Sequence record: QB031382.1
Strand: one strand, 5' to 3'
Origin: a phage
Length of the DNA stretch: 64,000 nucleotides
The notes under the pieces are model-generated. The model searched no databases. It was given only the letters and a program-made list of their open reading frames with translations, and was not told where the DNA came from. The position numbers and the translations under genes are program-made. Within the stretch, counting starts at the first letter, position 1. Every line of letters starts with the position of its first letter. Of the stretch, positions 8,828 to 48,129 are shown piece by piece.

Positions 8828-9155
8828 AAATAACATTGTGGCTTCGTGCAGTGATGCACGTCGAAAACCTCTTTAATTGACGGGAAGGCTAAGTTGACTT
8901 TTACACCTAAACATGGTAAAAGCTCAATATGCTAATCCGCAGCGAAGCATCCGAGAGGATGAACGTTCAGAGACTATCGAAAGCATAGCTCCAACATAGT
9001 TTGGTGTGAAGAAGCGAGTAGAGTAGGCCAGCAAGTGCGGTCGAAATGAGAGGTGCCTTGGTAACAAGGCAGTGAGATAGTCCGATCCATACGGGAAACT
9101 GTATGGCTATGCACGTAATGGTGCGGGGTAGCTTAACGACCTACCTGAACTATTG
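8828..9155 (+). ncRNA. group I self-splicing intron (no ORF) in the DNA polymerase gene
   Basis: Core elements P AATTGACGGGAA (8875-8886), Q AATCCGCAGC (8934-8943), R GTTCAGAGACTA (8965-8976), S GAGATAGTCC (9074-9083); U before 5' splice site pairs with guide GUGG 8838-8841; G9155 precedes 3' splice site. Confidence 0.75.
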
Positions 9156-45243: not shown

Positions 45244-46206
45244 TCAGCAACCACAACTTCCGTAGTGCTTAACCCGTTCTATAACCTCCGCTTGCTTACC
45301 TTTATTGTAAGGACGGGAGTTTGGACTGGACAGATACCCGGATACACGTCTAATCACACTGATCGTTCCCTCTTCATGGTTTCCACACTCTGGGCATACA
45401 AAGCCTTTAGCTGTTGCACTGAACTCACCAGAGAATCCACACTTAAGACATTTATCCACAGGCTGGTTAATACCAAAATACATAATGTGTTTATATCCGA
45501 AATCAACAAGAGCTTCCAAAGCATCTAAGTTGTTTTTCAGATTTGGTGTCTCTATGTACCCAATGTTGCCACCAGAGGAGATCATAGCAAAACCTTCCTC
45601 ATACTTCCACTTATCAAAAGGCGAGCTATTGATCCATACTGGCTGATGGAAACTGTTGGTGAGGTATTCATGCTCGTGCTTCAACACTTCTGGGTATTCA
45701 CGATCCAGACAGGTTGCAGCTTTATAGCATAAACTCTCAGAAGGTGTGCCGTACAAGCTAAATGCTAGTCCACTTTCCTTCTTGTATCGCTCACAAGCAT
45801 CTTTCATGTGCTGAAGGATTCCAAGAGCTAAAGCCTTGTCACCCTCTCTGCCCAAAATCTGACAGGTTTCATACACACCAATATACCCAATACTGATGGA
45901 AGCGTACCCGTCATAGAAGAGTTTATCGATACTCTCTTCAGGATCCAGGCGAGCAAGAGCTCCTTCACACCACATGATAGGGTTATGCCCTGCCTTTGTT
46001 CCTTTTAGACGGTTAACTCTTACAAGGTGAGCCTCATATGCCAAATCCAAATATTCGTCAAGAACTGCAAAGAAATCAACACCTTCCGTTTTAGCTTTTG
46101 CCGCAATCATTGGTAGGTTAAGGCTAACAACACCCAAGTTGAATCTGCCAAGGTATTTCTCCTCGCCTGTTACAGGATCGCTATATTTCGATAAGAAACT
46201 TCTACA
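45244..46206 (-). CDS. nrdD: anaerobic ribonucleotide reductase NrdD, exon 2
   Basis: Begins CRSFLSKYSDP; C-terminal zinc ribbon and glycyl-radical motif RRVSGYLSS. Confidence 0.8.
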   Translation of the reverse strand, partial: CRSFLSKYSDPVTGEEKYLGRFNLGVVSLNLPMIAAKAKTEGVDFFAVLDEYLDLAYEAHLVRVNRLKGTKAGHNPIMWCEGALARLDPEESIDKLFYDGYASISIGYIGVYETCQILGREGDKALALGILQHMKDACERYKKESGLAFSLYGTPSESLCYKAATCLDREYPEVLKHEHEYLTNSFHQPVWINSSPFDKWKYEEGFAMISSGGNIGYIETPNLKNNLDALEALVDFGYKHIMYFGINQPVDKCLKCGFSGEFSATAKGFVCPECGNHEEGTISVIRRVSGYLSSPNSRPYNKGKQAEVIERVKHYGSCGC

Positions 46207-46968
46207 CATTATGTTCAAGGTGGTTCGCAAGGCCACCCCCGCACCATTACGTGCTGCTGCATGTCCCCATGCAGATCAGACTATATCTTCACACTTAGTG
46301 TGTCTACCATTTCGAGTGTCATCAGCTTACACCCTACACCGCTACATTCATCACGGTTAGTCGTTAGGCATTTCGTAACAGAACTCGTAATCATAGTTAT
46401 TAGGTGCACCACGTTTCAGGATAGCAGATATTCTTTTTCTATCTATTCCTAAAACATCAGCACAACATCTCAGACTCTTAAAGTGAATAACCACACCAGT
46501 TAATTTGTGGGTGGCTTTCACCCCGTGACATCTTGTGTAAAAAGCATAACAGTTGTTGTCGTATCCTTCTTGAGTATTGTCTGGGCAAGCTCCCCACTCA
46601 AGGTTGTATACGCTGTTATCTTTCCTGTTGTCACCTTTGTGCTTAACATATGGTAAATTGTCTGGATTTGGTAAAAACGCTTCAGCAACAAGTCTGTGAA
46701 CCCTTAGGCAAACAGTCTTTTTGTTCTTGCGTATCCTGACAAGACGGTAACCTGTGTTTATCTCTTCCCACGAATGAATAATTCTTTCATTTTCGTATCG
46801 GGTGCAATAAACATTGCCCATCTCGTCAATTTCATAACCTTCAAAATCACGAATTTGTTTTCTCATTTCAGGACTCCTCTTAGTCAGGAGTTCTGTTACG
46901 TTTAGCACGGGATTGTCCGTTCTGGAGTTTCCCCGTTTAGATAGATTTTACATGAGCAGTTATAGTTT
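46207..46968 (-). ncRNA. group I intron in nrdD carrying an HNH endonuclease ORF
   Basis: U before 5' splice site, G before 3' splice site; P-, Q-, R-like elements at 46880-46940; S element AAGATATAGTC at 46279-46289; 18-nt GCACGTAATGGTGCGGGG (46237-46254) identical to polymerase intron. Confidence 0.6.
46357..46866 (-). CDS. HNH homing endonuclease (intron-encoded)
   Basis: HRLVAEAFLPNP...KHKGDNRKDN...NLEW; start at ATG after SD AAGAGGAG. Confidence 0.75.
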   Translation of the reverse strand: MRKQIRDFEGYEIDEMGNVYCTRYENERIIHSWEEINTGYRLVRIRKNKKTVCLRVHRLVAEAFLPNPDNLPYVKHKGDNRKDNSVYNLEWGACPDNTQEGYDNNCYAFYTRCHGVKATHKLTGVVIHFKSLRCCADVLGIDRKRISAILKRGAPNNYDYEFCYEMPND

Positions 46969-48129
46969 ACCCATGCTTGTTACTTTGCCGTCTGTTGAAC
47001 CTGTCACTTTACGATTTAGCGGAACAGAAACAAAGTCAGGATAAATCCGCTCTGCAGAGCATTCTAAGGCCAATCGTTTCAAATCATAGTTAGGATCCCC
47101 AGGGTTCATGTTGACACCCTCCTCTAAGAAGAACAACACTTTAGGGAACACAGGTGTGATCCGTTCTTCACCAAGACCCATTTTGTGAACTTTCAAGTAG
47201 TTTTTGGTAATCATTCTACCAAAGACCGAAGTATCCAGCCCTAAACTTAATGTGATGAATGGGGTTTGCCCGTTGACAGAAGTTAACGTATTGATTTGGT
47301 AGAGCAAAGTTTGCATACTATCAAACACGTCTTTATCTGTCATTTGCATTGCAACAGTCTCAGCATCTGGCAACCAATGTTCCTGACAAAATTTAAGGTT
47401 CTTCTCATAAGTTGCTTCAGCATACTGTGCCAAATAATGATCAATATGACTCATGGTCTGACCGCCATATTGAGCACTAGCTACTGCACTAGAGATTTGG
47501 CTAAGGATTGTTGTTGCAACCCCTATTGACTTCGGCTTACTGACATGGGCGTTGCCAATGTTGAATCCGTTTTCCAGCATATCCGGATAATTTACCAAAC
47601 AACAGTTTGTTAACGGACTGATCAGGTAGTCAAGATCATGCACATGGATGAAGCCTTTGTTGTGCTCTTCAGAGACACGGTCTGGCAGGATCTGTGTTGA
47701 TGCAAGATGTTTGCTAAGGATGCCTGCAAGCAGGTCACGATGAGTATGCACATGATTAGTAGGCTTATTTGCGTTTTCTTTTGTAAATTCATCACAAGTA
47801 CGATCCAAGAATCCGCTAATATCTGCAAGCAGTTTTCCACCTGCCTCTCTGTTATTATCTCTTGTCTGTCTATACTGGATGTATCCTCTGGCTGCACATT
47901 TTAAACCCATATCCATAAGAGCATCTTCAACAAGGATATGGATATTTTTTACAGAGATCGTGCACTGGTCGGTTGGCAGATTGTTGGCAACAACTTCATT
48001 AACCGCGCAGGCAATCCGGTAAGCTTCTTCTTCAGTATGTCCAGACTCAAGTAAGGCGGACTCTGCCGCCTTGATCACCTTAATTCCGTTATAAAACTCT
48101 TCTCTACCGTCCCGTTTTACAACTTTCAC
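46969..48129 (-). CDS. nrdD: anaerobic ribonucleotide reductase NrdD, exon 1
   Basis: N-terminal ATP-cone-like region; ends ...KVTSMG before intron; in-frame stop two codons into intron. Confidence 0.8.

Follow-up and report, generated by a model that had tools for sequence, protein, structure and literature searches.

A putative mobile group I intron of the sunY lineage, with an HNH endonuclease gene in its P6a loop, interrupts phage nrdD

Why does nrdD come in two pieces in this phage DNA, and could its product still be made whole? The DNA in question is a stretch of 64,000 nucleotides (nt) from a phage (sequence record QB031382.1), which we call the window. On its minus strand, the ribonucleotide reductase gene nrdD is split by a 762-nt insert that holds an open reading frame (ORF). 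A first-pass annotation had proposed that a group I intron with an HNH homing endonuclease gene splits the gene, and this proposal was supported by the gap that appears against the unbroken nrdD of phage rV5, by the joined protein, by covariation in the RNA and by a match of the ORF product to I-HmuI. We conclude, with a probability of about 0.88, that the insert is a mobile IA2 group I intron of the sunY lineage, with an HNH gene in its P6a loop, which would excise itself from the transcript and home. The parts of the locus are:

46969-48129, minus strand: nrdD exon 1, amino acids 1-387, with the ATP-cone and the N-terminal half of NrdD and the 3' end ...AUGGGU (based on Pfam ATP-cone, NRDD 1-263, the rV5 junction and the T4/phi92/rV5 protein alignment).
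46207-46968, minus strand: group I intron, IA2, sunY-type, 762 nt (based on the rV5 gap, a partial RF00028 match, ORF-less siblings and covariation).
45244-46206, minus strand: nrdD exon 2, amino acids 388-707, first codon Cys388, with the glycyl-radical domain (based on Pfam NRDD 264-562 and Gly_radical).

The boundaries of the insert were set by comparison with an uninterrupted gene. The nrdD region of the window is 99.1% identical to that of Escherichia phage vB_EcoM_SYGMH1 and 94-99% identical to that of many other rV5/FV3-like Vequintaviruses. When positions 45244-48129 (minus strand) were aligned with the uninterrupted nrdD of rV5, a single 762-nt gap appeared at 46968 to 46207, with the flanks ...AGCATGGGT/AAACTATAAC... 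and ...AACATAATG/TGTAGAAG..., where the slash marks the boundary. Shifting the boundary by one base in either direction spoiled the match to rV5 nrdD, and the placement of the gap is unique. The last base of exon 1 is a U and the last base of the insert is a G, the terminal guanosine (omega G) at 46207 in ...AUAAUG. The uninterrupted and the joined sites compare as follows:

Intron-less rV5-type nrdD site: ...AGCATGGGT/TGCCGGAGTTTTCTTAGC...
Joined exon junction expected after splicing: ...AGCAUGGGU/UGUAGAAG... (...AUGGGU/UGUAGA...).

The joined coding sequence (CDS) specifies 707 amino acids with no internal stop codon, reads ...KVTSMG/CRSFLSKY... across the junction, and could be aligned from end to end with the NrdD proteins of rV5, phi92 and T4. 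The two flanking ORFs cover positions 1-263 and 264-562 of the Pfam NRDD profile; since these halves are contiguous, the exon junction is seamless. The splice sites and the protein junction given by the first-pass annotation were thus borne out by both the rV5 alignment and the Pfam halves. The exon 1 frame meets a stop codon two codons inside the insert, and an intein is ruled out by such in-frame stops.

The codons for Gly387 and Cys388 flank the intron; these residues are equivalent to Gly289 and Cys290 of T4 NrdD, and Gly677 corresponds to T4 Gly580 (the numbering was checked on T4). From the T4 NrdD structure, we take Cys290 to be the thiyl-radical cysteine and Gly580 the glycyl-radical site, which would place the interruption directly before the radical cysteine.

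When the whole window was searched with Rfam at the gathering threshold, the sole match was an intron within the gene for DNA polymerase (75.6 bits, described below), and the nrdD insert was not recovered. A permissive scan with the covariance models gave a partial RF00028 match on the minus strand of 32.9 bits (E 2e-6; threshold 50). This match spans J6/7, P7, the 3' strand of P3, P8, J8/7 and P9, and the model's 5' half had to be fitted onto the ORF; the window copy falls below the threshold because the 500-nt ORF interrupts the model. As proxies for an ORF-deleted version of the window intron, we used its natural ORF-less siblings at the identical nrdD site, which scored 70.6 (phi92), 70.4 (ECGD1) and 70.5 bits (L014, an uncultured Vequintavirus-like contig) against RF00028. 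The phi92 and ECGD1 inserts are 279 and 290 nt long and 90% identical to the non-ORF parts of the window intron, and the L014 copy differs from the window core by nine substitutions outside P6a. Of the characterized introns, the closest by blastn is that of T4 nrdD (sunY), 70.5% identical over 78% of the ORF-less core, represented by the phi92 intron.

The Rfam scan of the insert gave no meaningful match besides RF00028, and the matches of the ORF were to neither a reverse transcriptase nor a transposase. Beyond the bare interruption of the gene, nothing speaks for some other kind of element (intein, group II intron or insertion sequence), and with no second RNA family and no such enzyme in the insert we give this explanation next to no credence.

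Support for the RNA fold itself came from covariation. An alignment of 11 sequences was built from copies at the same site in five phage lineages together with T4; the sources were Vequintavirus, Justusliebigvirus (phi92), the unclassified Vequintavirinae phage TH18, Felixounavirus (Meda), Vibrio phage F100, several uncultured contigs and T4. Before alignment, the distal part of P6a in ORF-bearing copies was swapped for a GAAA loop. RNAalifold alone recovered P1, P3, P4, P5, P6, P6a, P7.1, P7.2, P8, P9, P9.1 and P9.2. A test structure was then written from the window sequence, with P7 added as a pseudoknot, and was compared with controls in which the 3' partners were slid by 1-3 columns. Across the 11 sequences, 95.0% of the cells were paired, versus 33-44% in the slid controls, a comparison that tends to favor a structure derived from the window; the counts of double changes are free of this bias. 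Two-sided changes were found in 37 of the 71 pairs (6-15 after sliding), the score for covariation was 0.433 (0.05-0.08 when slid), and none of 500 shuffles attained any of the observed measures. MAFFT misaligned P5, P6a and P9.1, which vary in length, so that covariation in these helices is underestimated; P6a was re-checked sequence by sequence. The helices of the window copy were placed as follows, all on the minus strand:

46950-46976: P1, formed by the last 8 nt of exon 1 and intron A1 (46968-46976) with the guide sequence UGCUCAUGU (46950-46958); the last U of exon 1 is in a U.G pair.
46961-46965 with 46202-46206: possible P10, CUAUA of loop L1 with UGUAG at the start of exon 2.
46940-46945: P3, 5' strand.
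46931-46936 with 46907-46912: P4.
46924-46926 with 46916-46918: P5.
46905-46906 with 46368-46369: P6, 5' strand and 3' strand (GC).
46888-46900 with 46374-46386: P6a, 5' strand CGUAACAGAACUC and 3' strand, a long-range stem of 13 base pairs (bp).
46869-46895: hairpin over the Shine-Dalgarno sequence, AGGAG at 46874-46878.
46357-46866: endonuclease ORF, 169 amino acids, in the P6a loop.
46358-46362 with 46279-46283: P7, 5' strand GACUA (R); J8/7 and P7 3' strand UAGUC.
46353-46357 with 46338-46342: P7.1.
46329-46334 with 46314-46319: P7.2.
46303-46308: P3, 3' strand.
46298-46302 with 46290-46294: P8.
46268-46274 with 46257-46263: P9.
46251-46254 with 46241-46244: P9.1, a closed 4-bp hairpin.
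46233-46237 with 46219-46223: P9.2, followed by the 3' tail ...AUAAUG.
46237-46254: 18-nt block, covering the P9.1 hairpin and a G run.

The P1 helix, in which GCAUGGGUA pairs with UGCUCAUGU, was 96% paired, and 10 of the 11 sequences had the U.G pair at the splice site. In two contigs from IMG/VR (L026 and L043), exon 1 ends in ATGGGC, and the C at -1 forms a Watson-Crick C-G pair with the guide G rather than the U.G wobble that is near-universal at group I 5' splice sites. P3 and P4 were both 100% paired, with compensatory changes in five of six pairs and in two pairs, respectively. P7 was also 100% paired and was invariant save for one double change from U-A to C-G in TH18. Compensatory pairs were found in P7.1 (4 of 5), P8 (4 of 5), P9 (5 of 7) and P9.2 (5 of 5), and P7.2, with 6 bp, was 98% paired. 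The presence of P7.1 (5 bp) and P7.2 between the 5' strand of P7 and the 3' strand of P3 assigns the intron to subgroup IA2. That almost all helices show compensatory changes, across at least five lineages, indicates that selection acts on the RNA fold.

These results bear on a different explanation, in which nrdD is a gene in pieces, split by a homing endonuclease gene: the halves would be translated separately and assemble afterwards, and the flanking RNA would be a decayed or non-functional intron remnant. The early stop in the exon 1 frame fits this explanation, as does the end of the insert, where bases 46207-46209 (minus strand) read AUG in frame with exon 2. Most GenBank records list two CDSs, and the terminal in-frame AUG is found in nine of the ten lineages of the intron at this cysteine site (window, phi92, TH18, L014, L039, L045, L026, L024 and F100, the last with an intron end of ...GGGAUG placed by P10 pairing and reading frame). 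There are also precedents, since NrdA of Aeromonas phage Aeh1 is split by mobE and an HNH insertion in phage CB7 does not splice (PMC7344957, PMC3653736). However, the ribozyme core is intact and covaries throughout, ORF-less versions retain the ribozyme and nothing else, and the split falls directly before the radical cysteine. No Shine-Dalgarno sequence was found within 5-12 nt of the terminal AUG, and the Meda copy ends in AAG. The Aeh1 nrdA/mobE locus is likewise a phage ribonucleotide reductase gene interrupted by an HNH endonuclease gene, but neither an intron nor splicing is involved there (PMC3653736, PMC7344957), whereas the window ORF is enclosed by a complete, covarying ribozyme. 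We therefore consider separate translation of the halves improbable. The terminal AUG may reflect a constraint of the ribozyme or may be a back-up start codon; GenBank annotators begin the second nrdD fragment with it.

Where in the ribozyme does the ORF lie? The first-pass annotation had recognized an HNH-type ORF at 46357-46866, and both its extent and its type held: it opens with an ATG that has AGGAG 8 nt upstream, specifies 169 amino acids and matches phrog_59 and 1U3E. It had also placed the ORF in the P8 loop, with the R element upstream, and here the comparison with ORF-less copies led to a different answer. The ORF-less introns of phi92, ECGD1, TH18 and L014 keep CUGUUACGAAAUGCCUAACGACUA, which corresponds to the last codons of the window ORF (...CYEMPND, stop). 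Since this stretch is retained without the ORF, it must represent the 3' strands of P6a and P6, J6/7 and the 5' strand of P7. The ORF is thus in the P6a loop, and R is the GACUA at 46358-46362, at the ORF stop. The final ten codons and the stop overlap these RNA elements, and the UAA stop shares two bases with P7. The GACUA 5' of the ORF is instead the loop of a local hairpin, CAG-ACUCCU...AGGAGU-CUG, which buries the Shine-Dalgarno sequence (-11.7 kcal/mol, z -2.95). This upstream GACUA is missing from ORF-less relatives and is not conserved in phi92 and VEcB.

P6a forms a stem in each lineage, with a different sequence:

Window: CGUAACAG with CUGUUACG, extendable to 13 bp.
TH18 and L039: CGGU with ACCG.
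T4 and L014: CAGC with GCUG.
Meda: GAUGUA with UACAUC.
F100: CAAAGUAUU with AAUACUUUG.
L026: UCUAUA with UAUAGA.
L024: CUUUCU with AGAAAG (read by eye).

Among 35 IMG/VR contigs with the J6/7-P7-P7.1 motif, P6a inserts measured 16-20 nt where there was no ORF, 55-80 nt where ORF remnants were present and 506-828 nt where the ORF was present.

The position of the ORF also suggests how its expression might be held in check. Compensatory changes maintain the hairpin over the ribosome-binding site in VEcB, and an analogous hairpin occurs in F100; the hairpin predicted for Meda is weak (z -0.47). Both this hairpin and the 13-bp long-range P6a stem use CAGAACUC, so that only one of the two structures can form at a time, which could switch the RNA between translation of the endonuclease and folding of the ribozyme. 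Because the 3' end of the ORF overlaps P6a through P7, translation of the ORF and folding of the ribozyme should likewise compete on the same molecule. Endonuclease expression is thus probably restrained both by the hairpin and by the 3' overlap with P6a, P6 and P7, which would make translation and folding mutually exclusive. ORFs that reach into an intron core are a recognized arrangement (PMC3984707). A promoter scan inside the intron gave nothing above chance, and no late promoter or operator was identified.

The ORF product is, judging by its sequence, an I-HmuI-type HNH homing endonuclease. It matched PHROG 59 (phrog_59, "HNH endonuclease") with an E value of 4.5e-32, and residues 3-166 of 169 matched the whole of I-HmuI (PDB 1U3E) with an E value of 6e-8. 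I-HmuI is the HNH nicking enzyme encoded in a group I intron of the DNA polymerase gene of Bacillus phage SPO1. The two proteins are of the same length class (169 versus 174 amino acids), align from end to end and share the His/Asn/Asn of the beta-beta-alpha-metal motif and a C-terminal NUMOD-like helix-turn-helix. H76, N88 and N97 line up with H75, N87 and N96 of I-HmuI, and VEcB, Meda and F100 conserve all three; the Meda and F100 homologs, 49-52% identical to the window protein (Meda 49%), retain the motif. The proteins differ in that overall identity is low and I-HmuI Asp74 is replaced by Lys, and the host gene, the target and the intron are all other. The I-HmuI_NUMOD-like model scored 18.5 bits, below its cut-off of 27. 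Compared with the 85%-identical VEcB copy, the ratio of nonsynonymous to synonymous substitution (dN/dS) was 0.04 at a synonymous divergence above 1, indicating that the endonuclease is under strong purifying selection. By analogy with I-HmuI, the most likely activity is a single-strand nick near the insertion site.

The distribution of the intron points to mobility. The insert was found in only 18 of the 298 matching phage records, and many relatives with about 95% identity precisely lack it. Among phages that have it, the intron is 97-100% identical and the exons are 94-96% identical. Between the window and rV5, there are 17 differences in nt 1-60 of exon 2, versus 1-6 (about 3) per 60 nt elsewhere in the exons, and the first ~40 nt of exon 2 are unusually diverged from the intron-less allele. 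The diverged tract, TGTAGAAGTTTCTTATCG in the window, starts with TGTAGA, which is common to intron-bearing alleles of other lineages, and is consistent with co-conversion from a foreign donor. Together, the patchy distribution, the higher identity of the intron and the exon 2 tract suggest recent horizontal spread. In-frame ORF remnants occur in phi92, ECGD1 and the Felixounavirus-like contigs L029 and L032, and fit the stage at which homing endonuclease genes are lost, in their cycle of gain and loss. In L029 and L032, where the P6a insert is 80 nt long, a clean deletion has removed the interior of the endonuclease gene and left the ribozyme intact; the start codon (ATGCCAAAT...) now continues in frame into the final codons (...NFEYEFEYI, stop).

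An intron that splices but no longer moves would account for part of these observations. The endonuclease might be inactive, or recruited as a maturase or repressor, and the intron inherited only vertically. Two features of the protein point this way and also count against our preferred reading: the replacement of Asp74, a metal ligand in I-HmuI, by Lys, and a Pfam HNH_3 score of 20.0 bits, below the cut-off of 24.8. ORF-less derivatives are common, which implies that the ORF is dispensable for persistence. Against immobility stand the low dN/dS, measured over such a large synonymous divergence, the three motif residues conserved in four lineages, and the same distribution, identity difference and exon 2 tract that suggested horizontal spread. 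We judge an intron that splices but has ceased to move to be very unlikely, slightly more so than separate translation of the halves.

Other points also weigh against a self-excising, homing intron. The window copy itself, at 32.9 bits, is under the Rfam threshold; the cells-paired measure favors a window-derived structure; and the divergence spike in exon 2 could come from recombination other than co-conversion. In principle, the C-terminal half could be translated from unspliced RNA through the terminal in-frame AUG. Splicing, endonuclease activity and homing are, for this locus, predictions from sequence.

With these points taken into account, the mobile sunY-lineage intron remains our preferred reading, and we picture its life cycle as follows. 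The RNA would fold into helices P1 to P10, and two guanosine-initiated transesterifications would excise the intron to give an mRNA for the 707-amino-acid NrdD; we expect splicing because of the covariation and the homology to the self-splicing sunY intron. In a mixed infection, the HNH product would nick or cut intron-less nrdD alleles, and repair from an intron-bearing genome would copy the intron together with a short stretch of flanking exon. We expect such homing because of the presence and absence of the intron in relatives, the exon 2 divergence tract and the purifying selection on the ORF.

Several relatives share the site or the arrangement. In phi92 (gp192A, "spliced variant", FR775895), the same ribozyme sits at the same site, ATGGGT/.../TGTAGA, with the ORF lost and a 43-nt remnant in the P6a loop. 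The Felixounavirus Meda, with a CDS annotated as a join, has the same site and ribozyme and a homologous HNH ORF in P6a, which stops earlier than the window ORF, in the single-stranded stretch just past the 3' strand of P6a and before P6. An ORF looped out of P6 is also found in the T4 td intron, but its endonuclease, I-TevI, belongs to the GIY-YIG family.

How is the nrdD intron related to the intron in the polymerase gene of the same DNA? The features involved are:

8828-9155, plus strand: polymerase intron, 328 nt, no ORF, in the DNA polymerase gene (RF00028, 75.6 bits; exact insertion relative to intron-less slur16).
9111-9128, plus strand, and 46237-46254, minus strand: the 18-nt block GCACGTAATGGTGCGGGG.

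The block occurs exactly twice in the window, and 100 shuffles gave an expectation of none. With the polymerase intron delimited at 8828-9155, the block lies 30 nt before the 3' splice site of the nrdD intron and 27 nt before that of the polymerase intron, as the first-pass annotation had stated. Its further suggestion that the two introns are kin holds only for the 3' domain. Nucleotide similarity is confined to the 3' strand of P7, P9, P9.1 and P9.2, the P3-P8 cores cannot be aligned, and the closer relative of the nrdD intron is T4 sunY. The shared 3' domain could have come down from a common ancestor of this module, or have arisen by recombination between introns within the same genome. 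The polymerase intron is polymorphic in Vequintaviruses: slur16 and many others lack it, and in FV3, APECc02, I29 and others it carries a 168-amino-acid HNH ORF in P6. Over 100 residues, the FV3 protein from this intron shares 32% identity with the endonuclease of the nrdD intron.

FV3 nrdD (L003; also JEP1 and phita32) has a separate insertion of 798 nt with its own HNH ORF, at gene nt 861-1658, after codon 286. This insertion is absent from the window. It has a group I-like J8/7 and P9, and its ORF apparently lies past the 3' strand of P3, in the P8 region. Some phages have both nrdD introns. The FV3-type insertion was considered as a candidate for the T4 intron site and rejected, as it lies at codon 287 versus a T4 equivalent of 277.

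The likeness to T4 sunY is considerable. The T4 nrdD (sunY) intron self-splices in vitro. Both introns interrupt nrdD, their cores are homologous, and they use the same guide sequence, GCUCAUG. J3/4, P4, J6/7-P7, P7.1/P7.2, J8/7, P9 and P9.2 are very similar, and so are the 3' tails (UGAACAUAAUG in the window, UGAACACAUUG in T4) and the 5' exon targets of the guide (CAAGCUUAUGAGU in T4, CAAGCAUGGGU in the window). The sites are different: the T4 intron interrupts codon 180 (alignment column 277), and the window intron lies at column 387, 110 columns downstream. The endonucleases differ as well; in T4, the P9.1 loop encodes I-TevII, of the GIY-YIG family, whereas the window intron encodes an HNH enzyme in the P6a loop and its P9.1 is closed, as a short hairpin. 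The cysteine site of T4, which has no intron, also reads AUGGGU/UGC.

Two nrdD sites with near-identical 5' exon targets, and endonucleases that differ in family and location, would fit a scenario in which a sunY-type intron moved between nrdD sites by guide-directed reverse splicing and then gained a new endonuclease gene. We offer this as a tentative scenario, rather unlikely on balance. If true, it would be a natural phage case of ectopic transposition of a group I intron with endonuclease replacement, and copies in terL, thyA and tape-measure-like genes would be further products. A sunY-type core with an identical J6/7-P7-P7.1 motif does interrupt other phage genes in IMG/VR contigs, namely terL-like (L018, L030, L033, L036, L037), thyA-like (L035) and tape-measure-like genes (L012, L022), identified from the translated flanks only. 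The thyA-like copy in L035 carries a 260-amino-acid GIY-YIG ORF in P6a.

The surroundings of the intron and the existing records complete the description. The gene order on the minus strand is nrdB, glutaredoxin, nrdD, nrdG. The unannotated GenBank records MG0656xx ("Campylobacter phage" A142, C2, A147 and others) are 94-97% identical to E. coli Vequintaviruses in nrdD, the intron and the polymerase region, and their host labels look doubtful. GenBank already contains the identical sequence, usually as two nrdD fragments and an endonuclease, and the depositors of phi92 and Meda had already annotated the homologous insert as spliced. A literature search that did not cover the phi92 genome paper (PMC3457257) found no paper on this nrdD intron in Vequintaviruses, and the only introns that the rV5 paper mentions are those in the terminase gene.

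The nrdD intron of the window is a well-supported member of a thoroughly known class, and it opens no new question. Its value lies partly in annotation, as, in most of their GenBank records, the E. coli phages concerned, which are candidates for therapy or biocontrol, are listed with two nrdD fragments and a "hypothetical protein" or "homing endonuclease", where the correct annotation is one spliced nrdD with an intron-encoded endonuclease. It also exemplifies three themes already known: the targeting, by self-splicing introns, of the best-conserved catalytic codons in genes for ribonucleotide reductase, here the codon for the radical cysteine; the exchange of endonuclease genes and of ribozyme cores independently of each other; and the gain and loss of endonuclease genes, a process for which ORF-bearing, ORF-remnant and ORF-less copies of this intron can be compared.

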